This document shows, in pieces, positions 4,149-51,952 of a stretch of DNA of 55,072 nt. Where the stretch lies: assembly GCA_030638575.1 (NCBI GenBank), contig DAOWEJ010000105.1, positions 1 to 55,072 on the forward strand. Direction: 5' to 3'. The stretch is from Deltaproteobacteria bacterium (lineage in GTDB: Bacteria > Desulfobacterota > Desulfobacteria > Desulfobacterales > JAUWMJ01). A program made the position numbers and the translations under genes. The first letter of the stretch is position 1. The number at the start of each line of letters is the position of its first letter. The notes below the pieces were generated by a model that was not told the origin of the DNA, did no database searches, and saw only the letters and a program-made list of their open reading frames with translations.

Positions 4149-4167
4149 TTTATCTCCTGTGTTGAGT

Positions 4168-4387
4168 GGAATGGATTCGATTTTATTCTTAATAATTTAG
4201 ACAGGATCTACAAGATTAACTGGATTTGTTTTTCCAGGTTGTATTGGTATGTCATAGAAAGTAACGAATTGTCTGCGCTATATGAACTTACACGGGTGTT
4301 TTTTCCGCTGAAAGCGGATTATGTTTTTCCGGTTTCTTCCGGAAACCGGAAAACAAACATCCTGAAAATCCTGTAGATCCTGTCTAA
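4168..4387. repeat. Family-A inverted 9-mer cassette
   Basis: TTAGACAGGATCTACAAGATT (4197) and AATCCTGTAGATCCTGTCTAA (ends 4387) form a 20/21 inverted match; internal CCGCTGAAAGCGG and TTTCCGGTTTC..GAAACCGGAAA hairpins; outer GGAATGGATTCGA at 4168. Confidence 0.9.
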
Positions 4388-4857: not shown

Positions 4858-4875
4858 ATTATTTATTGAATTTTT

Positions 4876-5318
4876 TTAGACAGGATTAACCCCGGTGAAA
4901 TGGTTTTTAATTTCACTGGGCAGGCAGGATAGACTGGATTTTCTGTTCACGGCTTTCCAGAATAAAGCCATGAAATACAATCGCCTTCGGCGAAGAAAAG
5001 ATAATGACATGCATTATTTATAGCACATTACATTGGTCGTATTCATATCAAATGAAAGTTTAAAAAATAAGCTATATTAACAGTCTATTTCCGCTGAAAG
5101 CGGATTAAGTTTTCCCACTTCCATCCAGCCGTCGCAGCTTGGCAGATGCTATGGCGAGGCAAGCAGCGAAGTGGGAAAGAATAAAAATTATCCTGAAAAT
5201 CCCTGGCCCAGACCTGGTTTTAAGAATAACACCTAACTGAAGCTATTATCTAACACTTAATAACAACATATAAACGAAACTGCTCTCGTCGCGCCAGGGC
5301 AGGCTTGTAAATCCTGTC
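4876..5318. repeat. Family-A cassette with three nested inserts
   Basis: TTAGACAGGATT...AATCCTGTC ends; TCGCCTTCGGCGA and CCGCTGAAAGCGG hairpins; inserts at ~4890-4925, 5126-5164 and ~5200-5304. Confidence 0.85.
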
Positions 5319-5332
5319 AGCTAATAATTTGT

Positions 5333-7886: not shown

Positions 7887-7918
7887 AATGATTCTTCTCC
7901 TTGAATTTTATTTTTATC

Positions 7919-8173
7919 GACAGGATTAACCCCGGTGAAATGGTTTTTAATTTCACTGGGCAGGCAGGGCAAGCAATCGCCTTCGGCGAACAAGAGATAA
8001 TGACATGCATTTTATAGCACATTGCATTGGTCGTATTCAGATCAAATGAAAGTTTAAAAAATGAGTTGTATAAACAGTCTATTTCCGCTGAAAGCGGATT
8101 AGATTTAATCACTTCCATCCGGGAAGTGATTAAAATAGAAACTATCCTGTATAATCCTGTCAATCCTGTCTAA
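7919..8173. repeat. Family-A cassette, close relative of 4876-5318
   Basis: GACAGGATTAAC...ATCCTGTATAATCCTGTCAATCCTGTCTAA; long near-identical stretches shared with 4880-5107. Confidence 0.9.
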
Positions 8174-8176
8174 TAT

Positions 8177-11346: not shown

Positions 11347-11371
11347 GATCTATAGTCTTCCTTTCAAAAAT

Positions 11372-11685
11372 TGAATTGATTCTATTTTATGTTCTTTTAT
11401 TAGACAGGATTATACAGGATAGTTTTTATTTTAATCACTTCCCGGATGGAAGTGATTAAATCTAATCCGCTTTCAGCGGAGGTAAAAATTACATGGTGCG
11501 TAGCTTGCAATTCATCAATATAGCATAATAATACTTTCGCCAAAGGCGAATTGCACTTCATAATTTTCATCCAGCCGTCGCATCTTGGCAGATGCTATGG
11601 CGAGGCAAGCAGGAAAATTATGAATTAATCAATGTAATCCTGTAGATCCTGTCTATTAAGCAGTTAATAAGATCGAATCCATTCC
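11372..11685. repeat. Family-A cassette (reverse orientation)
   Basis: TAGACAGGATTATACAGGAT...AATCCTGTAGATCCTGTCTA...GATCGAATCCATTCC; CCGCTTTCAGCGG precedes TCGCCAAAGGCGA; insert 11572-11610. Confidence 0.85.
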
Positions 11686-11718
11686 TCTGTAGTATTTAAT
11701 AAGTTTTTATGGCAATTG

Positions 11719-13842: not shown

Positions 13843-14091
13843 TTATACTGTTATTTTCCTTTCCAGAAAGGCTGTTACATTGTTGATGGAATCTAAGTTT
13901 TCCGGCACAAGTTCTTCATCTTCAACACTGATTGAAAACTCTTCTTCCAGAAAAGTAACCAGTTCAAGGATTCCTGTTGAATCAATGATTCCATCTTCAA
14001 GAAATGAAGTGTCATCTCCCAAACCGTCTTCGCTTCCAAAAAGGAAGTTTTCTACAATAAATGTTTTAATTTTTTCTTTTGTTTCGTTCAT
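13843..14091 (-). CDS. Acyl carrier protein
   Basis: 82 aa, acidic, GIIDSTG phosphopantetheine-attachment motif. Confidence 0.95.
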   Translation of the reverse strand: MNETKEKIKTFIVENFLFGSEDGLGDDTSFLEDGIIDSTGILELVTFLEEEFSISVEDEELVPENLDSINNVTAFLERKITV

Positions 14092-14110
14092 TTCTATCCT
14101 TTCTTATTTA

Positions 14111-14701
14111 TTCCACCGCAAAGGCGCTCAATTCGCTGAGATAATTAGTTTTTTGTTTTCCGTTGAGAGGACGGAAAACAAAAAAACAGTCTTTTACGGC
14201 TATTCTTCCAATTGATTAACGAGTCTAACAATACCATCTTTCATAACCGAAACATTAAAATTGAGTAGCAACCCTAATTTTTGGCCTGATAATTTCAGGT
14301 AGGATAATAGCTGAGCCTTGTGGATTGGCTCTATCTTTTCAATGGATTTCAATTCGGTAATTATTTTATTATCAATAACAATATCGAGACGGTATCCACA
14401 ATCCAGTCTTTTTCTTTTATAGATAATCTGTAAAGCTTTCTGTCTTTCGAATTTTATCCTTCGAAGCTCTAACTCATAACAAATACATTCTTCGTATGCA
14501 GATTCTAACAGACCTGGGCCAAGAGTCCTATGGACTTCAATAGCCGCTCCGATTATCTTACTGCTTAGTTGATTAATGTCCATTTTTGATCTTACCTTAA
14601 ATGGCAAAAAGCATCAGTAACAATGCTGTTTTTCTATTGTCGGCCTCTCAACGACAATAGAAAATTGTTCATCTCTGCGACCTTTGCGACTTTGCGGTGA
14701 A
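14111..14701. mobile_element. GxxExxY cassette bounded by inverted 9-mer arrays and twin hairpins
   Basis: CACCGCAAAGGCGC..TCGCTGAG (14113-14140) versus CTCTGCGACCTTTGCGACTTTGCGGTGAA (14673-14701); hairpins 14149-14187 and 14630-14664 share CGTTGAGAGG in inverted orientation. Confidence 0.65.
14200..14583 (-). CDS. GxxExxY protein (PD-(D/E)XK nuclease-like, PDDEXK_3/TIGR04256-type)
   Basis: LGPGLLESAYEEC, YRLDIV, ELKS, AQLLSYLK, GLLLNF; likely start ATG 14583 rather than 14607. Confidence 0.92.
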   Translation of the reverse strand: MDINQLSSKIIGAAIEVHRTLGPGLLESAYEECICYELELRRIKFERQKALQIIYKRKRLDCGYRLDIVIDNKIITELKSIEKIEPIHKAQLLSYLKLSGQKLGLLLNFNVSVMKDGIVRLVNQLEE

Positions 14702-14709
14702 TATACCTT

Positions 14710-15702
14710 TTATTTTTTTATTTCAGGGACGTCATCTACCAGAAGAGGTTGCAGGTGTAAATAGCGCGTAGTTAACCTTTTGGTGTCGATATCATCGTAC
14801 ACCCTTTGTATCTGTTCCGGCTCTAAATCGAGGTATTCAGCAACAGTCTCAACCGAAATGCCATTGTTCTTTCCATATAAGCAGAGATCCATTCTATCAT
14901 AGGGAAGGGAGAAATAGAATTCATCCTGGCCCTGGGAAAGCGAATAGGTATCTGTTGTAGGCGGCCGTTCTCTGATTTCTTCGGGAACACCGAGATATTC
15001 TGCTAATTGGTATACCTGCGTCTTATAAAGATGGGCTATCGGCTTTACATCCGCAGCACCGTCACCCAGTTTTACAAAAAAGCCCTGGTCATATTCCAGG
15101 CGGTTCGGGGTCCCGGCCACAGCAAAGTTAAGTCTGTCAGCATGATAGTATTCAAGCATTTTGCGTATGCGTTGCTTGAAATTAGTCGCCGCAACAATTT
15201 CAAGATATGCCCTCAACGTAAGCCGCTTTTTTACAATAGTATTGTCAGGGCTTTGAGCAACAATTGAAAATAAATTAAAACCTTTTGTTTCAATAACGTT
15301 CGGGGTGACAATCTTAGACTTCCATCCGTCTCCGTATCCAGGGACAACCATTCGTACAGCATCATCATATCTCTTGTAGAAACCCACCGACTCGAGTATT
15401 CCGGAAATATCTTCATGAACTTTATCAACACCAAAATGATCTGCCACCATTTGGCTTAGTTCAAGGGTATCAGCGGCAGAATGACGCTCAGGCATCAACA
15501 ACGCCAAAACCCGATCCCGGCCTAAAGCTTTTGCTGAAAGTGCAGTGGTGACACTGCTGTCAATGCCACCGGAAAGCGCGACGATCAAGCCTCGTCGTTT
15601 AAACTGGTTTGCCGTAAAACTGATAAGTTGTTTGGTGATTTTTTCTACTTCTTCTTCCGGATCGATTATTAAAACATCTTTTGAGAATTTTTGGTTTTTC
15701 AT
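14710..15702 (-). CDS. nadE: NH3-dependent NAD+ synthetase-like protein
   Basis: SGGIDS, GFFVKLGDG, KPIAHLYKTQV; no glutaminase domain. Confidence 0.8.
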   Translation of the reverse strand: MKNQKFSKDVLIIDPEEEVEKITKQLISFTANQFKRRGLIVALSGGIDSSVTTALSAKALGRDRVLALLMPERHSAADTLELSQMVADHFGVDKVHEDISGILESVGFYKRYDDAVRMVVPGYGDGWKSKIVTPNVIETKGFNLFSIVAQSPDNTIVKKRLTLRAYLEIVAATNFKQRIRKMLEYYHADRLNFAVAGTPNRLEYDQGFFVKLGDGAADVKPIAHLYKTQVYQLAEYLGVPEEIRERPPTTDTYSLSQGQDEFYFSLPYDRMDLCLYGKNNGISVETVAEYLDLEPEQIQRVYDDIDTKRLTTRYLHLQPLLVDDVPEIKK

Positions 15703-15735
15703 AAATATCCTTTTTGTTTTTTATTAGCCGGCTTC

Positions 15736-17748
15736 CTATCTTCCCAGCTTCCCGGCCTCCTGGCCTTTTCCAAATATTTTGACATCATCCGGCTCTTGAA
15801 TCGGATGAGTAGGGAAATTTTGTATAAACTGGTGATCTAAAAGCTGAGTGGAAAGAATTCCGACCATGGCCATATTCTCCCGTTCACTTAAAATTTGCCC
15901 TTCCTTCTTCCTGCATTTCATAACAAGCCTTGAAACCTTTTTATTATCAAAATAGCCGCTTCTCTTGATTGCACTTTCTGACAGCAAATCTTCCACATAA
16001 TCGACAGGTTGATTACCAAAAAAACATTTACTTATGGGTGCACGATACGGTTGTTTGGGTCTGTCAATTACTTCAGCAGGAATAAGGCCGCGAGCTGCCT
16101 GCTTTAAAATGAATTTTTCCTTAAGCCCGTTCATTCGATAGCATGGCGGAACCCGGGTGGCAAACTCAACCACGCGATGGTCCAGAAATGGATAGCGTCC
16201 TTCGACGGCATTTGCCATGGCCATCCGATCTCCTTGGGAAGACAAAAGATAATTTGAAAGAAAAAGATTGATTTCAGTAAATTGGGCTCTTGACAGCGGA
16301 TGCCATGACATGAAATCCGCCGGCAGCGTAGAAACAAATCTATCGAAAAATTCTTCCTGGGTTCCGGTTTCCTTCTGCAAATCATCCGAAAAGAAACCTC
16401 TCAGGTGGGCAGTATTTTGCCATCTGAGCAAGTGAGAATAAACAGGTGAGTTAGTTTCGGAAAGACTTTTTCTGAAAAATCCCTCCAGAAATGCTTTTGC
16501 CTTACCGTTTTGCTGGGCAAAAACATAGGGGTAAAGTCTTTCAAGGAGCATGGGCCGCATCCTGGAATCAGGGTTCCGTGCCCAGAACCTTCGCACCCTG
16601 TCTTCTTTGAAGATATTATAGCCGGCAAATATCTCATCAGCCCCTTCACCTGTCAGCACTACCTTGAAGTTGTTTTCTCGGACCAGCTTTGAAAGATGAT
16701 AAAGGGGAGCGGGAGCTGTCCTTAGTACTGGCACTTCCGTGTGCCAGATGACTTGAGGGAAAGCCTCTCCGATATCTTTTTCAGCACACCTAATATCTCG
16801 ATGTTCAGTTTCAAGGGCATTAACTGCTATTTCTTGAAAAGGAGTTTCGTCGAAACGGCTATCTGTGAAACTGACTGAAAAAGTACGAAGTAAATTGTTG
16901 AAATTGCGTTTTACGAGTGCACTGGTATAGGTGCTGTCAAGTCCGCCGCTTAGATACGCTCCAACAGGAACATCCGCACGGAGCCGAATTCTTGCAGCAT
17001 CACGAAGCAAATGGTTTAATTCTTCTGTCCATTCTAATAAAGGTCGTTCACTTGGGTATTCATCACTTTGACTGTTAAAAGATAATTTCCAGTAGCGATG
17101 TGTTCTGAAACCCTTCTTAGAGAACCTGGCATAATGCCCCGGCGGAACCTGATATATATCCCCGAACGGCGTAGAAGAACCAACAGGTGTCCAGCATGTA
17201 AATATATCTGAAAGTGTCTGTGAATCGAGTTTGCGTGGAATCGTTGGGTCAGCAAACAGAGCTTTTACTTCAGAACCGAATACCAGCCGCCCGTTATTTT
17301 GGTAGTAGAAAAGAGGCCTGATACCCACCCTATCACGCCCAAGCAGCAAGGCTTCCTTTTTTTGGTCCCACAGGGCAAATGCAAACTGTCCGTTCAGGTC
17401 ATTAAACATTTCCGAACCGTGTTCCTCATATAAATGCACCAGGACTTCCGTGTCGGTTTGAGTGTAAAACCGGTGGCCCCGTGCAACTAAATCTTCCCGG
17501 AGTTCCGGGTAGTTGAATATTTCACCGTTGAACACTATCCACACAGATCGATCTTCATTGTGAATCGGTTGATCTCCGCCACTTAAGTCAATGATACTCA
17601 ACCTTGCATGCGCCAATCCCGCATTAGGGCTTATGAAAATACCTGAGGCATCCGGCCCCCTGTGACGAATAAGTCCGATCATCCGGCAAAGGGTGCCTTG
17701 CATGTCTTCAGCGTGATTATAATTAATTATTCCTGCTATTCCGCACAT
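15736..17748 (-). CDS. asnB: Asparagine synthase (glutamine-hydrolysing) family amidotransferase
   Basis: MCGI N-terminus, HRGPD, NGEIFN, LSGGLDS, GEGADE. Confidence 0.92.
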   Translation of the reverse strand: MCGIAGIINYNHAEDMQGTLCRMIGLIRHRGPDASGIFISPNAGLAHARLSIIDLSGGDQPIHNEDRSVWIVFNGEIFNYPELREDLVARGHRFYTQTDTEVLVHLYEEHGSEMFNDLNGQFAFALWDQKKEALLLGRDRVGIRPLFYYQNNGRLVFGSEVKALFADPTIPRKLDSQTLSDIFTCWTPVGSSTPFGDIYQVPPGHYARFSKKGFRTHRYWKLSFNSQSDEYPSERPLLEWTEELNHLLRDAARIRLRADVPVGAYLSGGLDSTYTSALVKRNFNNLLRTFSVSFTDSRFDETPFQEIAVNALETEHRDIRCAEKDIGEAFPQVIWHTEVPVLRTAPAPLYHLSKLVRENNFKVVLTGEGADEIFAGYNIFKEDRVRRFWARNPDSRMRPMLLERLYPYVFAQQNGKAKAFLEGFFRKSLSETNSPVYSHLLRWQNTAHLRGFFSDDLQKETGTQEEFFDRFVSTLPADFMSWHPLSRAQFTEINLFLSNYLLSSQGDRMAMANAVEGRYPFLDHRVVEFATRVPPCYRMNGLKEKFILKQAARGLIPAEVIDRPKQPYRAPISKCFFGNQPVDYVEDLLSESAIKRSGYFDNKKVSRLVMKCRKKEGQILSERENMAMVGILSTQLLDHQFIQNFPTHPIQEPDDVKIFGKGQEAGKLGR

Positions 17749-17755
17749 GGATTAT

Positions 17756-17878
17756 ATAGCTCATAGCTGATAGCTCAGAGTTGACAGCTCAAAGCTGATA
17801 GTTCAGAGCTCATAGGGGTTAGGTACTGACAGCTCAGAGATCAAAGCTGATAGGAGTTAGGTGATAATCATGGGTCAT
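17756..17878. repeat. 7-mer array (AGCTSAT-type) on the 3' side of the four-helix-bundle gene
   Basis: ATAGCTC ATAGCTG ATAGCTC AGAGTTG ACAGCTC AAAGCTG ATAGTTC AGAGCTC... Confidence 0.95.
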
Positions 17879-17891
17879 AACAACTAAGCCT

Positions 17892-18251
17892 TTAAGCTTT
17901 AATTGAATTGATGAGGCCGGAAAGCATTCTATTTATTTCTTCGGCTTCTGAATACAATTCATTATACTTTTCTCGTTTCAGCCATTTCTTCTTTAGAAAT
18001 ATTTGTAGCATTGTTACAGTCTCGTAAAGAGACCCCCTGGAAATGTACAAAAAGTGTTTAAACTCCTTTTTCGAATATCTCCCTTTCCCTTCCGATATAT
18101 TCAAAGCCACTGAAGTACTAGAAGCTTCTAACTGTTCGATGAGCCTATAATGTTTCCGTGACGTATCGAGTTCGTCAACGAGATTAATCACTGAAACTGC
18201 AAAATCCAATGCCCTTTGATAAACTTGTAATTCCTCAAAAGCAAATCCCAT
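17892..18251 (-). CDS. Four helix bundle protein (23S rRNA IVS protein / TIGR02436 family)
   Basis: FEELQVYQRA, QLEASSTSVALNISEG, FLYISRGSLYE, MLSGLI; likely start ATG 18251 (AAGGA RBS); track start 18266. Confidence 0.92.
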   Translation of the reverse strand: MGFAFEELQVYQRALDFAVSVINLVDELDTSRKHYRLIEQLEASSTSVALNISEGKGRYSKKEFKHFLYISRGSLYETVTMLQIFLKKKWLKREKYNELYSEAEEINRMLSGLINSIKA

Positions 18252-18267
18252 TATCAATTCCTTCATT

Positions 18268-18353
18268 TATGAGCTGTGAGCTACCATCTGTCAGCTATTC
18301 CCTTACCTATCAGCTATTCCCTATGAGCTGTGAGCTATTACCTGTGAGCTATC
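18268..18353. repeat. Inverted 7-mer array (TGAGCTR) on the 5' side of the four-helix-bundle gene
   Basis: TATGAGCTGTGAGCTA...TATGAGCTGTGAGCTATTACCTGTGAGCTAT, reverse complement of the left-array unit. Confidence 0.95.
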
Positions 18354-18354
18354 C

Positions 18355-19710
18355 TCATCTTCCCGTCCTGTATGGCTGACTGCGAGTTAACGTTATGCTC
18401 AAAAGGCCTCGATTTTCAACGTAATCAATTGGATCAGTTGAGTCAAAGTTGCGATAGGAATATTCAACCCTTATGCTAAAGTTGATGTTTGAAGACAGCC
18501 ATCTTTCATATTCATATGTAAGCCCGACGCCGCCTCTTGTGGTCTTGTCTCTACGCACAGGGTCCTCGTCCTCATATTTGTCCTGCCGGTATGAACCGAA
18601 AATATCTCCGGTAACGCGCCTTGTAAGATTGTATTCCGCTTCCAGGCCGGCCTCATAAAATATTGACAACCCCAGGCTCTCGGCACCAAAATATGCTCCA
18701 TCGTACCCACCTGATCCTGCTAAGCTTACCGAGCCTCTTTGAAATGTTTTTTCAAAAACGACATCTGCTGTCGGGCCAGATTTGTCATCACGTCCTTCAA
18801 TTTGCTCGTCATAATCCTGGACAAAATAACCGACATCAACGTCAATTCTTTTATCCTGAGCAACCTCGTAATTAAAACCGATATATGGATTATAAATTTG
18901 ATAATCTTCTTCGGTTTTTTCAAAATCAACGTAAATATGGGTATAAGCTAAATGCCCTTCAAGTTGCCGGGAAAACCGTTTTATCAATCGTATATTGCCG
19001 TCCCATGCATTAAAATCATCTGATGGTATACCAATAAATCCATCTTCCCTGTCGTACTCAGCCTTTATATATGATACTATTATTTCACTACCCCATCGTG
19101 GAGTAAACCAATAAGTAAGACCTGCTGACGGAATATGCCGTGAATTGTCTTCAAGGGTTTCATCTTCGTTTTCAAGGATGCCGTACGCATATTCAAGATA
19201 GAAAGAATCGTTTTCACCAAACTGATTGGTAAACCTTAAACTGGCAATGTTTCTAATGTATGGCTCTCTTGATGTTCTTAAAGTAGGATCTGCTCCTATG
19301 GCAGGATCATCGGAACGCAAATAATAAATATCTTCCTCTCCAAACGGATCTTCAGTTCGCACGAAAGCATTACGTATTTCCAGCCTGCTGTTTCGCGTCA
19401 GGTCTGACCAGCCGTAAAGCAGAGCAGTATGGCGCCATGTGTCGTTCTCAGAGAACTCGTTGTAAATGGCATATGCAGGATCGTACGATATTTCTATTCC
19501 GCTGTGTTGCCACAAGAGTTCAGTAGTAAATCCTAGAGAGATAACGGTAATAAACTCATCTTCTTCAGCATCTTCCAACAGGAAATAATTATCTGTATAT
19601 TCACCGCTAACAGACATCCTTGGTAAAAACGTGGCCTGGAAACCGGCAGCGTTAGATGCAATAAATAAAATAGTGGATATTGCCACGCAAAGATAAATTT
19701 TAAATTTCAT
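18355..19710 (-). CDS. Outer-membrane beta-barrel protein (EPS/PEP-CTERM-associated porin-like)
   Basis: Signal peptide, alternating aromatic beta strands, C-terminal YVENRGLLSITL; next to the Wza-like gene. Confidence 0.75.
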   Translation of the reverse strand: MKFKIYLCVAISTILFIASNAAGFQATFLPRMSVSGEYTDNYFLLEDAEEDEFITVISLGFTTELLWQHSGIEISYDPAYAIYNEFSENDTWRHTALLYGWSDLTRNSRLEIRNAFVRTEDPFGEEDIYYLRSDDPAIGADPTLRTSREPYIRNIASLRFTNQFGENDSFYLEYAYGILENEDETLEDNSRHIPSAGLTYWFTPRWGSEIIVSYIKAEYDREDGFIGIPSDDFNAWDGNIRLIKRFSRQLEGHLAYTHIYVDFEKTEEDYQIYNPYIGFNYEVAQDKRIDVDVGYFVQDYDEQIEGRDDKSGPTADVVFEKTFQRGSVSLAGSGGYDGAYFGAESLGLSIFYEAGLEAEYNLTRRVTGDIFGSYRQDKYEDEDPVRRDKTTRGGVGLTYEYERWLSSNINFSIRVEYSYRNFDSTDPIDYVENRGLLSITLTRSQPYRTGR

Positions 19711-19787: not shown

Positions 19788-20105
19788 TTAGCCACCCCAG
19801 TACCATCTACCGGAGCTACAGGGAAGGCAGACACACACAGACTCACACGGACATCTGTCCGAGCGGGTCGCTCGGATAAATACAGTCATCCGCCAAAGGC
19901 GGATAAAACTGATCATTTTATCGTTGCCAAAGCTGATAATCAGCAAATTCGCAGCTATTGCAAGCAGGCTAAAATATAATGTTTTTTACTGCCCAAAGGG
20001 CATACAACCTTTTCCCGGTCGGACTCGGCCATGAAAAAAATTTGTCTGTGTATGTCTGTGTGGAGCTTGCCGAGTCGAAGCGTGCGAAGCCTGGTCGGTG
20101 GCTAA
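19788..20105. repeat. Family-Q inverted 10-mer cassette
   Basis: TTAGCCAC[insert]AGACACACACAGACTCACACGGAC ... GTCTGTGTATGTCTGTG[insert]GTGGCTAA with internal hairpins; orphan right ends at ~9961-10009 and 52811-52899. Confidence 0.8.
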
Positions 20106-29239: not shown

Positions 29240-29242
29240 CAC

Positions 29243-29320
29243 AGGCTTGGAAGCCTGGAAGCTATGAAGCTAAAAAGCCTATCAGCCTCCCGGCTTCATA
29301 GCCTCCCAGCTTCATAGCTT
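29243..29320. repeat. Empty inverted 8-mer cassette (GGAAGCTW / WAGCTTCC; family K)
   Basis: AGGCTTGGAAGCCTGGAAGCTATGAAGCT then AGCCTCCCGGCTTCATAGCCTCCCAGCTTCATAGCTT, directly followed by the RBS. Confidence 0.85.
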
Positions 29321-29339
29321 TTTTAGGAGGATTTTATTT

Positions 29340-30479: not shown

Positions 30480-30508
30480 ACGGAATCTGTAAAATATCCG
30501 GAACTATC

Positions 30509-30866
30509 TATTTAAATGAGGGGTCGGGGAGTTTTTCCTCAAAGGCTTTTTTTAGTGAACCGTTTGTGTTTTAATGATTGTCAACGGTTCGTCTGGGGAA
30601 TAGCCTATTAGCCCGTAAAAACCTTAACAAATGTGAACAGTCCCCTGTACACGCCCCCTATCTTCTGCGCTAAGTCCGTACAGGCAGAAAAGATCATCGC
30701 CGTCGTGGGAATCTGTCTTCTGGGGCTGGCTCAAATCTAATTTAAGCGAGATAGCTGCCGTACGACAGTTCCTCGATTTTATTGTTAAGGTTTTTACGGG
30801 CTAATAGGCTATTCCCCAGACGAACAGAGCAGAGATCGAAAAACTCCTCGACTCCTCATTTAAATA
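30509..30866. mobile_element. Nested inverted-repeat element (MITE within MITE)
   Basis: Outer 29-bp IR 30509-30537 / 30838-30866 (2 mismatches); inner perfect 44-bp IR 30587-30630 / 30782-30825. Confidence 0.8.
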
Positions 30867-30961
30867 AAAGTATAAATTTGGATTATTAAAAACATGCTCA
30901 AATGAGCATTCAGGTGATCCGGTTTTAAAGAGGGGCGCTGTTTGAATGTAAGGAGTATGCC

Positions 30962-31708: not shown

Positions 31709-31808
31709 GCTGGAAAGCTGATAGCGGAGGAAGCTGGGAAGATAGAAGGTTAGGAAGCTAAAAAACTTCTCAGCCTCCTGGCTTCATAGCTTCCCAGCTT
31801 CATAGCTT
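31696..31808. repeat. Empty inverted 8-mer cassette (family K)
   Basis: Same layout as 29243-29320, also ending GCTTCATAGCTTTTTTAGGAGG. Confidence 0.85.
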
Positions 31809-31825
31809 TTTTAGGAGGTATTCTA

Positions 31826-35620: not shown

Positions 35621-35775
35621 CGAGCGCTTCGCTTTAAGAGCACTACGTTCGAAGAGCGCTTCGCTTGAGGATTAAGGCTTTAGCCTCAAGGACGTCAGTC
35701 CGCTCTTCAAGGACGCAAGTCCGCTCTTCAAGGACGCAAGTCCGCTCTTCAAGGACGCAAGTCCGCTCTTCAAGG
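35621..35775. repeat. Inverted hairpin-studded arrays including a 4.3x 21-bp tandem repeat
   Basis: TCAAGGACGCAAGTCCGCTCT units at 35686, 35707, 35728 and 35749; AAGAGC+GCTTCGCT-type units at 35621-35669. Confidence 0.9.
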
Positions 35776-36627: not shown

Positions 36628-36654
36628 TCTATATATCGAGCCAATTTCAAAAGA

Positions 36655-36861
36655 GCATTCAGGTGATCCGGTTTTAAGGCGGGTCGCTGTTTGAAGGTAT
36701 TAGTAAGCGTTAAGAAAGAACAACAAACAAGCACATTTTATATGCAAGGCAAATAATATGTTCGTTTAGCAACGCTTTTTATAAAAGGATTGCACCTGTT
36801 CTTTCTTTACGCTTACTTTTGCCTGAGTTCGACACGTCCTAAAACCGGATTATCTGAATGC
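36655..36861. mobile_element. Palindromic MITE-like element between trpD and trpC
   Basis: GCATTCAGGTGATCCGGTTTTA / TAAAACCGGATTATCTGAATGC (20/22), inner IR ~36702-36722 / ~36797-36817; left end repeated at ~30904-30946. Confidence 0.75.
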
Positions 36862-36898
36862 GGCTTTGTTTAAAAGAGCTAAAATATTATCATTCTCT

Positions 36899-40136: not shown

Positions 40137-40155
40137 ATTTTATTCCTTATTAAAT

Positions 40156-40226
40156 AAAAAAAGGACCGTGAAAATTTCCACGGCCCTTTTAAATAAAAAA
40201 ACCGTGGGCTAAGGTTTACCCACGGT
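40156..40226 (-). terminator. Two tandem intrinsic terminators (trp attenuator)
   Basis: Hairpin 40201-40226 plus T-run, and hairpin 40163-40186 plus T-run, on the minus strand. Confidence 0.85.
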
Positions 40227-40276
40227 CAAGAATTTTAAGTTATTTATTAGTCAAGACGATCTCATGAGGCAAACCA

Positions 40277-40354
40277 CTACCATAGCGTTTGCCACCACCA
40301 CTCATTTAAGTCTATGTTGTTAATAGTGATATTTTGAATATTATATGCTTCCAT
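40277..40354 (-). CDS. trpL: trp operon leader peptide
   Basis: MEAYNIQNITINNIDLNEWWWQTLW* (25 aa), GGAG RBS, overlaps a GGCAAAC..GTTTGCC hairpin, upstream of the terminators and trpE. Confidence 0.9.
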   Translation of the reverse strand: MEAYNIQNITINNIDLNEWWWQTLW

Positions 40355-40424
40355 TTTTTCTCCAAAGATACATAAATGTTAACTAAATTATATAGCTCCT
40401 GTCAAGCTTTTTTTCCTGCGCCTT

Positions 40425-40700
40425 CAGGGTAAACGCATTTTTAAAATAATATTACCTTTAGAACTGGGCCGGAGCTTAAAAATTTTTTCTCCAGCCAATA
40501 TCAACCTATACTGTACGGGGTGACCCGATATTCCATGATTTTGCGTAAATATTTTAAAGAATGAGATAATCTGTACATCAAATCATAAATATCGGGTCAC
40601 TACGATATATCCTGCAAACTGAAAAAGATATTGTCTGGAGAAAAAACCTTTAAGCCCCTCCTTTTAAACTGATTTTGTTTTTCCAAATGCGTTTACCCTC
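40425..40700. mobile_element. Palindromic MITE with ~10-bp target duplication (IS4-like)
   Basis: AGGGTAAACGCATTT / AAATGCGTTTACCCT; flanks CCTGCGCCTT (40415-40424) and CTTGCGCCTT (40701-40710); further nested internal IRs. Confidence 0.8.
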
Positions 40701-40795
40701 CTTGCGCCTTGTTCATTACAAAAATCTGATGTATAGTTTGAATAAAAGTATTCCGGAGCCGGAGTTCCAGCTCCCGATTCCTGGTAGTGACCACT

Positions 40796-48338: not shown

Positions 48339-48637
48339 TCTTCTCCAAATTAGTTGGAGAAGAGGATTCTAGGATTCAAGGGTTCAAGGGTTCAAGTGAA
48401 TGCAAACGGCTTGATACAGATGACATAAACACTTGCGTCTTCTCTGCCCTTACTCCTTAATCGTTTCAAAGTATGTCTATATAAAAAGACGGTTCCAAGA
48501 GTCAGGGATTTTTCTGTATGTATTTGTTTTCCGGTCATTTTCACTCGAACCCTTGTTTGCCCGGCGTAGCCGAAGGCGAAGCTTGGACCCCTTGAATCCG
48601 TGAACCCTGATCAATCGACCAACTCTTTGGGAGATGA
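48339..48637. repeat. Family-M cassette: outer IR plus inverted 8-mer (GGTTCAAG) arrays around a non-coding core
   Basis: TCTTCTCCAAATTAGTTGG / CCAACTCTTTGGGAGATGA; arrays 48363-48400 and 48540-48608. Confidence 0.8.
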
Positions 48638-48994: not shown

Positions 48995-51952
48995 TCAGTT
49001 TTTTAATACCCATTTCTCAATTACCTCAAAGACAAGCTCCTTTTTAATCGGCTTTTTGATATAATCATTCATACCTGCTTCAAAACATATCTCCCTGTCA
49101 CCCTTTATGGCATTGGCGGTCATGGCGACAATCGGAACATGTTCCGATTGAGTTGATAGCTGACAGATGATAGCTGATAGGTTTGGTTCTTCCTTTGCTG
49201 CATGCTTTGAGCTATTGGCTGTGAACTGTGAGCTGTCTGCTTTGAGCTGTGAGTTGTGAGCTATGAGCTCTTCCTCCCACTTTCTGATTTCCTCTGTTGC
49301 CTCAAGACCGTCCATTTCAGGCATCTGGATGTCCATGAAAATCATGTCAAAATCGTCCGGAGACGAGGTGTATTTTTCAACTGCTTCCCTGCCGTTATTG
49401 GCAACTTCCACATGATAACCTGCCTTTTTTAGCATTAATGTTGCCAGCTTCTGGTTGACAGGATTGTCCTCGACAAAAAGTATACACATAGAATGCTTGG
49501 CTTCTTCCTTAATGGAATGTTGGGTAACAATTGCGCTTTGCTCCGGTTTTTCTTTGAGCTGTGGGCCATGAGCTGTAAGCCTTTCAATCATCTTTACAAG
49601 TTTTTCTCTGCGAACAGGCTTACTCAAGAAGCCGTCAAATCCTGCGTTTTCGCATTCTTTTGCGCTCCTCTCCATAAGTGAAGAAAGGGCAAGAAGCACT
49701 ATTTGGGTCGGTTCGATCCCGTCATTTGACATTTGACATTTATCATTTGCGTCTTCTTCAATCAATGACTTCTCCCAATTTCGGACTTCTCTTGCCACAT
49801 CATACCCGCTAACGGACGGCATCTGTATATCTAAAATGCAAAGGTCAAAAGGTTCCCCGGTTTCCAAGGCTTTTTGCAGTGCATGTACAACCTCCTTTCC
49901 GTCCAGCAGAGTAACTGCATTAATTTCTGCCGAATTTAAAGTATGCCTTAATATCTCCAGGTTTGTACGGTTGTCATCAACAATGAGAATCTTTTTACCG
50001 ACAAGCGAAACAGGAGCAACTCTTTTGACTTCTACTTTTTCAACCTTTTTGAGCCATGCGGTAAAGTGAAAAACGCTTCCGGGGTTTTGGTCGGAGCGTA
50101 GCGTAGATCCCGCAGAAGGCGGGATTGGTGGTTGAGTAGTTGAGTGGTTGAATGAAGGGCTTTGAGCCCAGACATCTCCCCCCATAAGCTTGGATATTTT
50201 CTTGCATATGGAAAGACCCAGGCCTGTTCCTCCGTACTTTCTCGTGGTTGAACCGTCCGCCTGCTCAAAGGGCTCAAAAATGGCGGACAGTTTTTCTTCA
50301 GGAATACCTATACCGGTATCGCGTATTTTGGCATGAAGCTTAATCCTTTCTTCATCTTCCTCCTCCACCTCAATGGAAAGTTCAATCTCACCTGTTTCAG
50401 TAAATTTTGGGGCATTACCCATAAGGTTTGTAAGAACCTGCCTGTACCGCGTCGGGTCACCTTGAACCATTGCAGGAACGTTATCCCCGATACGGCACAA
50501 AACCTCGATGGGTTTTGATTCAATCTTCGGGCGAATCAGTTCACAGATGTCGTAGGCAAGAAGCTCGAAATCAAAATCTATCTCTTCAAAATCAAGTTGC
50601 CCTGCCTCGATCTTTGAAAAATCTAGGATATCGTTAATCAATGAGAGCAAAGATTCTCCGCTTCTTTTAACTGTTGCCACATAATCGTTCTGCTCTTCAT
50701 TAAGGTCAGTATCAAGGAGCATGTCTGAAAAACCTATAACTGAATTCATGGGTGTGCGGATTTCGTGGCTCATGTTGGCAAGAAATTCACTTTTTGCCAT
50801 GCTGGCAGCCTCGGCCATTAAAGCCATATCGTTGGCCCTCTCAATGGCCTTCTCAAGCTGGCGGTTGGTTTCAGCAAGCTGTTCTTCGGCCTGCTTGCGC
50901 TCTGTAATATCAGAATCGACCCCCCGATAGCCGATAAGCTCACCTTTTTCATCAAGTATCGGAATTCCGCTGGTTAAAAAACAAACCATTTGTCCGTCTT
51001 TTGTAAAATTCCAGTTTTCCAGGTTACGTATTGGGCGCTTATCTTTGACAATCTCACTAAAGATAGCGCCGATTCTTTCCTTCTCATCAGGATGCATGAA
51101 ATCAATGGGGGTTTTGCCTATCATTTCCTCTGCCTTATAACCCAGGATTTCTTCCACCTTTCCCGAGCAATATGTATACACCCAACTCCTGTCTGTCTCC
51201 CAGATCCAGTCAGACATGCTTTCCACAATGTTTCTAAAACGGCTTTCTGATTGCTCGCGATTGGTGATTTCAGACTCAAGTTTCTCGTTGAGTTTTTCAA
51301 CATGTTTCTTTTCATTTTCTAAATGCTTAATCAGATTGGTATTTTCAAACCGAATTTCCAATGAACGAAAAATACTTGTGTTCAAACGCAGTGCGGTAAC
51401 TATCATTATAACCATGAAGAGAAATATCATTCCTGCTATAGCGATGTAAAGATCACTTCCCTGCAGTAGGAGTCGAATAATAAGGGGAATCGATGCTGTA
51501 AGACTGAAAGCTAAAAAAGCTCTCATCATTATTGAATATGTTCCCAGCGCTCCTGCTATCATCCCCCCCATAACGAGGATAAGAAAAATCTGGTGCAAAT
51601 CAGAGTTCACACTAAACAGAAAGAATCCAGCAAAACCCCAAACAATACCGCTAACGGCTATTCCTGTTATAAGCACTATATTCCAGTAATCGGCTTTAAG
51701 AAGTTTAGATGAACTGCGCTTGTATTTATACAGCGATATATACCTGATGAACGTTATCAGAAAATTGCTGAGAAGCCATATGATCAATACCGTATGCGAA
51801 ACAACATTCCAAAGGATGAAAGTCAGGATAGCCGAATTCACTATAGTTGCGATCATGCTTACAGAAACGTTTCCATAAAGGATATTAACTTGCTCTGCGT
51901 ATAAACCTGTTTTATTTGTGTTTTTTGACATATTTAAAAGCTGTCCTTTCAT
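48995..51952 (-). CDS. Membrane-bound hybrid histidine kinase (TM-PAS-HisKA-HATPase-REC-REC) with repeat-derived insertions
   Basis: [44 protein letters not shown]. Confidence 0.95.

Follow-up and report, generated by a model that had tools for sequence, protein, structure and literature searches.

In the contig examined here in full (DAOWEJ010000105.1, 55,072 nt, hereafter the window), a minus-strand polysaccharide operon of the PEP-CTERM type is interrupted by two small genes, one for a four-helix-bundle protein and one for a GxxExxY protein. The initial annotation had described both as intruders in an otherwise coherent exopolysaccharide operon, each bracketed by inverted arrays of its own short repeat, and this description held. 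The neighbours are genes for an acyl carrier protein (ACP), a NAD synthase-like protein, an AsnB-type amidotransferase and an outer-membrane protein, both small genes lie between inverted short-repeat arrays, and each gene with its flanks makes up the entire spacer from one host stop codon to the next host start (table 1). We call such a unit a cassette and its outer repeat arrays arms. The 55-kb contig belongs to a 2.3-Mb metagenome-assembled genome (MAG), G000, which is 76% complete and has 41% G+C. Relatives of this genome are labelled Desulfobacteraceae and Desulfosarcina-type, and the read runs containing the contig, 22 of which were found in one search, come from cold seeps and marine sediment.

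Table 1. Cassettes, genes and repeat elements of the window (a dot marks features given without a strand; 5' and 3' follow the orientation of the cassette gene).
Feature	Position	Strand	Basis
Whole four-helix-bundle cassette, outer-membrane gene stop to asnB-like start	17749-18354	-	ORF map, RNA fold
Four-helix-bundle / 23S rRNA-IVP (S23p) gene, 119 aa	17892-18251	-	TIGR02436, PF05635
5' arm of four-helix-bundle gene, AGCTSAY heptamer array	18268-18353	-	TRF period 7/14/21
3' arm of four-helix-bundle gene, inverted heptamer array	17756-17862	-	TRF, inverted alignment, motif count
Whole GxxExxY cassette, NAD synthase-like stop to ACP start	14092-14709	-	ORF map, RNA fold
GxxExxY PD-(D/E)XK gene, 127 aa	14200-14583	-	TIGR04256, PF13366
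5' arm of GxxExxY gene, about 3 CGCAAAG-type 9-mers, CACCGC terminus	14673-14699	-	
3' arm of GxxExxY gene, degenerate 9-mer units	14114-14140	-	
Inner perfect hairpin, 13-bp arms, 5' side of GxxExxY gene	14630-14664	.	inverted-repeat pair
Inner perfect hairpin, 15-bp arms, 3' side of GxxExxY gene	14149-14185	.	inverted-repeat pair
PEP-CTERM outer-membrane protein gene	18355-19710	-	
AsnB/PEP-CTERM-type amidotransferase gene	15736-17748	-	
NAD synthase-like gene	14710-15702	-	
ACP gene	13843-14091	-	
GACAGGATT-type gene-less inverted-array element	4149-4383	.	
GACAGGATT-type gene-less element	4858-5332	.	
GACAGGATT-type gene-less element	7887-8176	.	
GACAGGATT-type array end with modules, right limit approximate	9032-~9330	.	
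GACAGGATT-type gene-less element, opposite orientation	11347-11718	.	
GACAGGATT-type gene-less element, right limit approximate	20717-~20990	.	
ACACACAGAC-type gene-less inverted pair with inner hairpins	19828-20061	.	
GGAAGCYW-type array hairpin, then T-run (TTTTTT) and AGGAGG just before next gene	29240-29339	.	
GGAAGCYW-type array hairpin, then T-run (TTTTTT) and AGGAGG just before next gene	31709-31825	.	
GAGCGCTTCG-type inverted arrays, including a 21-mer x4.3	35622-35775	.	
GGATTCAAGG-type array, inverse about 200 nt off	48363-48600	.	
AGCTSAT gene-less inverted pair, matching the four-helix-bundle cassette arms in repeat unit	49154-49270	.	

The four-helix-bundle product matched TIGR02436 (E = 4.1e-33, 113.9 bits, cut-off 24) and PF05635 (E = 3.4e-32, 111.3 bits, cut-off 33.8). 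Its open reading frame (ORF) has its own AAGGA Shine-Dalgarno-like site, the AAGG-type site lying 8-9 nt ahead of the ATG. In an alignment of 16 sequences Q31, S38, N42, E45 and E68 were invariant. Compared with the published family motif GxxRxxxSxxxNxxE (PMC3936711), the window protein has E in place of R, and the Q..S...N..E core is present. A phmmer search matched it to PDB entries 2RLD and 2GSC, each deposited with five chains, and by this similarity the protein appears related to pentameric structures. Its arms are built of 7/14-nt units, with 8.6 copies in one array and about 6 in the other as counted by Tandem Repeats Finder (TRF), and with about 4-9 heptamers per arm overall. Positions 17756-17816 align in inverted orientation with 18302-18353 over 48-51 nt at 75-77% complementarity. 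The upstream arm carries seven forward motifs per 160 nt, where the background is 0.044, and the downstream arm seven reverse motifs and no forward one.

The GxxExxY product matched TIGR04256 (E = 5.5e-45, 152.5 bits, cut-off 35) and PF13366 (PDDEXK_3, E = 2.3e-43), and its ORF also has an AAGG-type site 8-9 nt ahead of the ATG. G24, E27, Y30, D67, E77 and K79 were invariant in 16/16 aligned sequences and, with D67, E77 and K79 all in place, the nuclease looks catalytically competent. The AlphaFold2 model reached a pLDDT (predicted local distance difference test) of 95.1. Foldseek placed Cas4 SSO0001, lambda exonuclease and Hjc in its top rows, and because even these gave only E values of 3e-3 or weaker and TM (template modelling) scores of 0.42-0.53, the likeness in fold to PD-(D/E)XK nucleases is weak. 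In the flanks, 14114-14160 aligns inverted with 14653-14699 (47 nt, 72% complementary). The inverted 9-mer arms proposed in the initial annotation are thus present, although 'arrays' overstates about three degenerate units per arm, of which TRF detects only those at 14676-14696; on both sides the units end in a CACCGC terminus. We also inspected contigs of four public read runs (X4, X6 and X7 from DNA, X10 from RNA). Contig depth at 14042-14212 was 5-100x that of the flanks in the three DNA runs, and loose ends were numerous at 14145-14149 and 14184; the 3'-side inner hairpin (14149-14185) is a very abundant, highly multi-copy repeat in the source community.

Paired short-repeat arrays are a feature of the whole genome. 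TRF returned 1444 short-period rows in G000 compared with 484 in a third-order Markov simulation, and 326 compared with 63 for period 7. Among 1146 neighbouring array pairs at most 1.5 kb apart, 85 were inverted and 14 direct at an alignment score of at least 14. By eye, all 14 four-helix-bundle matches in G000 and both GxxExxY matches show inverted array flanks. Enrichment of such flanks beside the two families, a prediction of the initial annotation, was clear: 12 of the 15 family genes with enough flank reached an inverted-flank score of at least 18, compared with 19 of 1473 control ORFs (ORFs of 90-160 aa in G000, the family genes themselves included). The inverted flanks of both gene families are far above chance.

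Most of the 85 pairs are gene-less, with their arrays 10-260 nt apart. They had been said to fill almost always the gap between a stop codon and the next ribosome-binding site, which does not hold genome-wide: 42 lie between co-directional genes, 17 between divergent and 16 between convergent ones, and 10 at contig ends, the baseline gaps being 1192 co-directional, 198 divergent and 232 convergent. Gene-bearing cassettes differ from these pairs in their operon co-orientation. The small gene and both neighbours were co-oriented in 41/51 loci, the small gene was antisense in 2, and the flanking genes were convergent or divergent in 8.

The arrangement recurs in relatives. TIGR02436 matched 32/41 same-order genomes and TIGR04256 23/41; taking about one locus per genome at the same threshold of 18, inverted flanks were found at 24/29 usable four-helix-bundle loci (23/28 without the window; one locus dropped for a short flank) and 21/29 usable GxxExxY loci (19/27 without G000; one dropped). 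In five MAGs under the labels Nitrospinae, Melainabacteria, Bacteroidia, Alphaproteobacteria and Ca. Syntrophoarchaeum, 15/18 usable four-helix-bundle loci passed (two dropped). Array unit sequences vary widely from locus to locus, and the period differs by family. We measured it with TRF on the arms, whole-arm autocorrelation being too diluted by non-repeat stretches. Four-helix-bundle arms (28 with a TRF array, 11 more without) had periods of 7 (20 arms), 8 (three), 9 (two), 12 (one) and more than 12 (two), at a median of 4.3 copies per arm (interquartile range 3.1-4.7, n = 26). GxxExxY arms (12 with, nine without) had periods of 8 (six), 9 (three) and 10 (three), never 7, at a median of 2.7 copies (n = 12); within the order their units are variants of CRCARAG plus two letters, or of ACAGGATT.

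In addition, the two genes cluster. By an eye count, 14/55 GxxExxY matches have a four-helix-bundle match within 5 kb, far above the expectation from densities, with the genes in neighbouring spacers and not as an adjacent pair (G000 C94, C95; G001 C26, C103; G004 C7; G007 C73; G019 C63; G025 C32; G027 C7; G030 C13; G037 C162).

Repeat unit and protein clade proved to be linked, as the initial annotation had anticipated. The window four-helix-bundle protein has relatives at 73-81% identity, and one at 54%, in MAGs whose labels differ widely. AGCTSAN stands upstream of the gene and its complement downstream in every one of the 11 clade members, at up to 7-9 motifs per 160 nt compared with 0.044 expected; none of three distant relatives (41-44% identity) carries the motif. 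Across the 28 four-helix-bundle elements that combine an intact ORF with good arms, the likeness of arms rose with protein identity (Spearman r = 0.24), and arms were shared by 10/10 pairs at 70% identity or more, 22% of pairs at 50-70% and 0-2% below 50%. For 19 GxxExxY elements chosen in the same way r was 0.49, with arms shared by 6/7 pairs at 70% identity or more. In both families 0/2000 Mantel-type permutations reached the observed r, a figure in which kinship overstates independence. No host-genome effect on arms was seen, since elements in the same genome with unlike proteins share no arms. Within the window clade dN (nonsynonymous divergence) is 0.12-0.20 and synonymous sites are saturated (pS, the synonymous difference, 0.69-0.96); the four-helix-bundle protein is therefore under strong purifying selection. 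The heptamer has been kept despite this saturation, which argues that the unit sequence itself, and not only its pairing, is constrained, and this is our main argument. Together, the arms of 11/11 clade members and the correlation with identity show that gene and arms pass as a single DNA unit, both by inheritance and by horizontal transfer.

Two further observations concern this clade. Proteins 73-81% identical to that of the window and flanked by AGCTSAT-type arms turn up under the MAG labels Alphaproteobacteria, Ca. Syntrophoarchaeum (an archaeon), Nitrospinae and Pseudomonadota (loci L049-L057), which reflects either wide horizontal transfer or mis-binned contigs. In a MAG labelled Desulfovibrionales (L058, 256-723), a gene of the clade carries an insertion of ~40 codons with the AGCTSAT arms kept; its match region has two in-frame stops, one within the insertion and one beyond.

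Comparison of orthologous junctions among congeners revealed some that are filled, some that are empty and some that hold another element. In G002, a genome of the same genus (AsnB 84% identical), ~18 nt separate an outer-membrane gene remnant from the asnB start, compared with 606 nt in the window. On contig C94 of G000 a 575-nt four-helix-bundle cassette lies between a gene stop and the gatC start, and the orthologous spacer of G001 holds a 113-nt gene-less CACGGATT-type pair. The GxxExxY junction gave no such comparison, ACP lying beside the NAD synthase-like gene in none of the four relatives' loci. Non-autonomous derivatives, as postulated initially, were also found: C57:63405-63664 and C93:11396-11681 both derive, by internal deletion, from the four-helix-bundle cassette at C8:24871-25355. 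The inner sequences of gene-less pairs form dispersed families at 75-95% identity, one of them, with five copies, having sharp ends outside the arms. Terminal inverted repeats together with dispersed copies and deletion derivatives are the marks of MITEs (miniature inverted-repeat transposable elements). Decay is common: 8/14 four-helix-bundle matches in G000 contain stop codons and several are truncated. By these sequence comparisons, cassettes are shown to land in intergenic spacers, to be gained, lost or replaced between congeners and to decay to ORF-less inverted-array hairpins, and such hairpins are most of the 85 or more pairs in G000.

Clean excision at the window site was considered and rejected. 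Joints from 17773-17789 to 18268-18321 in the metagenome contigs all contain 20-37 foreign letters, with sides of 20-30 nt, and most likely derive from gene-less AGCTSAT pairs of other loci; in a joint from 17748 to 18573 one side spans just 20 nt, too short to interpret. A different kind of turnover is seen on contig C8, where a 170-nt multi-copy element without tandem arms (G000:C8:23709-23878, L094:310-479) extends from a TAA stop to an obgE-like GTG start, with CTAA at both junctions; at the orthologous site all three congeners lack it and have 2 nt instead.

Folded as RNA on the gene strand, both spacers form stable structures. The arms of the four-helix-bundle spacer form a terminal stem (minimum free energy -170.1 kcal/mol, z = -3.81), and in the GxxExxY spacer the arms and both inner hairpins pair (-165.3 kcal/mol, z = -5.29); z was computed against 20 shuffles, none of which folded as well in either case. 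No promoter- or terminator-like site was found on the gene strand within either cassette. Contigs of the RNA run cover 17773-18223 and 14507-14964, such contig cover not being proof of transcription.

These observations are best accounted for, with a probability of roughly 0.6, if the small genes are cargo of selfish cassettes of the intervening-sequence (IVS) type in polysaccharide-operon spacers, the gene-less pairs are their MITE-like derivatives, and the arms act both as a stem and as iterons. We favour an IVS-type element because the rRNA intervening sequence is the closest documented likeness. Such a cassette comprises a small ORF that brings its own ribosome-binding site and runs in the direction of the host operon, inside terminal inverted repeats made of tandem units. 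It would be transcribed with the operon, and its arms may pair, looping the cassette out of the mRNA and forming a stem of the type cut by RNase III, by analogy with rRNA IVSs and Correia elements. The layout hints that each protein reads its own repeats. The arms may accordingly double as iterons for the cassette protein, a pentameric four-helix-bundle ring reading about 4-5 heptamers and the nuclease reading nonamers, because the unit is kept despite synonymous saturation, the period is family-specific and the encoded protein is the arms' sole companion between hosts. Spread would proceed via the arms: either a nuclease or recombination would drive copying into empty arrays of the cognate type, or an enzyme of the host would act in trans. 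Nuclease-triggered copying is conceivable for the GxxExxY cassette because its D...ExK residues are intact and its PD-(D/E)XK-like model is confident; for the four-helix-bundle protein we know of no catalytic motif. The initial proposal of a repeat-guided mobile or RNA-processing system thus stands in part, for one transferable unit, gene-less derivatives, junction turnover and a repeat type that tracks both family and clade.

Several results weigh against this interpretation. The arms are only 72-80% complementary, and when we scored arm pairing on the sense strand of 15 cassettes (608 Watson-Crick pairs), G:U pairs showed no strand asymmetry (31 sense, 25 antisense) and most mismatches were transversions (the 94 remaining pairs); there is therefore no signature of selection on RNA pairing as such, and we make no claim of it. 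The inner sequence of the window four-helix-bundle cassette has no second copy in G000. No target-site duplication was evident by eye in five aligned copies of one family. We found no cognate transposase: PF01797, the one transposase family searched, had no match on the window contig, and three Y1_Tnp matches elsewhere in G000 have no link to cassettes. Gene-less pairs occur in all kinds of spacer and in both orientations. Of 11 hits of the GACAGGATT family in G000, 10 lie on the window contig, and this near-confinement is as compatible with local spread or a local role as with transposition. Finally, kin are not independent, and counts over relatives overstate significance, while the cross-phylum labels are MAG labels that could reflect binning errors.

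The alternative with most in its favour, which we nevertheless consider unlikely, is that the inverted arrays are host-beneficial structures like repetitive extragenic palindromes (REPs) or bacterial interspersed mosaic elements (BIMEs), serving as stabilizers, processing sites or attenuators that tune operons, with the genes as passengers. Many gene-less pairs do sit exactly in the intercistronic gaps of the exopolysaccharide operon, to which GACAGGATT is nearly restricted, the GGAAGCYW hairpins are followed by a T-run and AGGAGG, and the folds of the two cassette spacers are stable. However, the pairs show no co-directional enrichment (42/75 placed pairs compared with 1192/1622 baseline gaps), copies occur in both orientations, and orthologous spacers of congeners are empty or hold another flavour. 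Moreover, the arms track the cargo protein across hosts and not the host operon, and an Rfam search of the window returned no known RNA family.

We likewise give little credence to the idea that the arrays are pre-existing host insertion targets or hot spots and that only the small genes move, homing into palindromic array centres. It would explain why only one of 10 AGCTSAT-type pairs among the 85 in G000 contains a gene, why a further such pair lies at 49154-49270, why one spacer holds different elements in G000 and G001, and why metagenome contigs join AGCTSAT arms across only 20-37 other letters. Against it, the unit type stays with the protein clade across differently labelled MAGs with no effect of the host genome, and deletion derivatives retain both arms. 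Because the sharp boundaries of multi-copy families lie outside the arms, the arms belong to the repeated unit, which also counts against homing.

Paired arrays of this geometry in Geobacter metallireducens have been read as binding sites of a host nucleoid or global regulator, integration host factor (IHF) or HU (PMC2700814), and Correia elements bind IHF (PMC2649163). Here, dozens of unrelated unit sequences coexist in one genome, the unit tracks the cargo protein across hosts, and periods of 7-9 do not fit the site of one host protein, which makes this explanation highly improbable. Replication slippage in AT-rich spacers, with a coincidental link to the small genes, agrees with the free variation of unit copy number among copies but is refuted by the controls, namely the excess of inverted over direct pairs, the TRF excess over simulation and the enrichment of flanks beside the family genes, and we dismiss it.

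A broader form of the cassette interpretation is possible, and we put it forward only tentatively: PF05635 pentamers and PF13366 nucleases might be specific readers of their own iterons, carried by widespread, minimal, transposase-less cassettes that copy into empty arrays and remove themselves from transcripts as an RNA stem, with rRNA IVSs as a special case.

The rest of the window bears out that gene-less inverted-array layouts recur in other sequence flavours (table 1). Six spacers are taken up by the GACAGGATT family, whose copies run in both orientations and combine arms with small hairpin modules in a mosaic. The inner 160 nt of the ACACACAGAC-type element are 84% identical to DNA adjoining a GxxExxY gene in the congener G001. 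The GAGCGCTTCG-type flavour is also that of the arms of the C94 four-helix-bundle cassette, and the GGATTCAAGG-type flavour that of decayed four-helix-bundle copies elsewhere in G000. The two GGAAGCYW hairpins resemble intercistronic terminator or attenuator hairpins made of such arrays. Long inverted repeats that are not arrays lie in the spacers 30480-30961, 36628-36898 and 40137-40786 (self-complement scores 71, 60 and 68); a motif of ~50 nt common to the first two marks another repeat family. The last ~9 codons of the asnB-like ORF enter a GCTTCCCA-type array (15731-15753), and because orthologues align only to residues 1-661 of its 670, the array has apparently displaced the stop codon.

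Parts of this system were known separately before, and to call it undescribed, as the initial annotation did, is too strong: the architecture is known from the 23S rRNA IVS of Coxiella and the gene-less pairs from G. metallireducens. The Coxiella IVS (Warrier et al., PMC4990558) is 428 nt long, is closed by a terminal stem of 28 bp that RNase III cuts, and contains an S23p four-helix-bundle ORF in reductive evolution, preceded by 2-3 tandem GACAGAT heptamers whose number varies among strains. The rRNA IVSs of Coxiella, Leptospira, Brucella and Xanthomonas resemble our cassettes in the PF05635 ORF in the loop, the terminal inverted-repeat stem, the variable-copy heptamers in the 5' arm, the sporadic, horizontally transferred distribution and the often decaying ORFs (PMC4990558). 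One four-helix-bundle cassette in a relative (L035, G030:C38, about 60850-61360) even has GACAGAT/GACAGAA heptamer arms, the same unit as in Coxiella. In contrast, the window cassettes sit in an mRNA operon, between genes that encode proteins, have longer arrays on both sides, share their plan with a second cargo family, GxxExxY, and have many dispersed ORF-less derivatives. An rRNA location, that is, insertion in a 16S or 23S helix, does not apply to either, as both lie between protein-coding genes and the Rfam search of the window was negative. No such arrays occur in the 23S genes of G001 and G025, and no 23S gene was found in G000 (at 76% completeness), G002 or G003.

The paired sites of G. 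metallireducens (classes 1-3) consist of opposite-strand tandem repeats of four octamers, three nonamers or five heptamers (PMC2700814). They share with the gene-less pairs an intergenic position, variable distance, 3-5 tandem units of 7-9 nt, multiple copies and several flavours; they differ in being described as gene-less host regulator sites, in a text whose accessible part makes no link to four-helix-bundle or GxxExxY genes. Correia elements of Neisseria, which bind or are cleaved by RNase III (PMC2649163), are likewise co-transcribed, intergenic bacterial MITEs with terminal inverted repeats, many non-autonomous copies and an RNase III-cuttable hairpin. Their terminal repeats are of unique sequence, however, with a TA duplication and no cargo gene, whereas the repeats here are tandem arrays, no duplication was seen and full-length copies carry a small non-transposase gene. 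Identity with REP/BIME elements and their RAYT (REP-associated tyrosine transposase) systems was rejected, as the arms are degenerate tandem arrays of many flavours and not short, unique, GC-rich palindromes with a conserved head. CRISPR arrays have direct repeats of 24-40 nt and unique spacers; here units of 7-10 nt run head to tail in inverted pairs.

The cyanobacterial STRR (short tandemly repeated repetitive) sequences are comparable intergenic heptamer repeats. The DGR (diversity-generating retroelement) accessory protein Avd is a four-helix-bundle pentamer acting with nucleic acid in a mobile or retro-element context; unlike there, the vicinity of the cassettes contains no reverse transcriptase, template repeat or variable repeat. 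Both PF05635 and PF13366 are very large families across phyla, and to our knowledge neither has a known function. TAACTGA heptamer repeats occur in intergenic DNA of Beggiatoaceae, Cyanobacteria and Bacteroidetes, and resemble our arrays in their tandem 7-mers close to start codons and their patchy cross-phylum distribution, but they are direct (169 direct sets and one inverted in the BOGUAY genome) and enclose no gene (PMC4679880). 23S_rRNA_IVP genes have also been reported between cas genes (PMC3936711). In the open literature, as distinct from subscription journals and the supplements of PMC2700814, we found no paper that ties non-rRNA PF05635 or PF13366 genes to flanking inverted tandem arrays, and, within the open literature again, no statement that the period differs by family or that the unit follows the protein clade.

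The cassettes split operons and therefore may shape mRNA processing and mislead both annotation and CRISPR or repeat finders. The iterons beside the genes, 7-mers for PF05635 and about 9-mers for PF13366, suggest a candidate ligand for each family, and if these proteins do read short tandem units specifically, they would form a natural set of small, programmable-looking nucleic-acid binders. Our results join rRNA intervening sequences, the 'paired regulator sites' of Geobacter and intergenic heptamer arrays into one kind of element.

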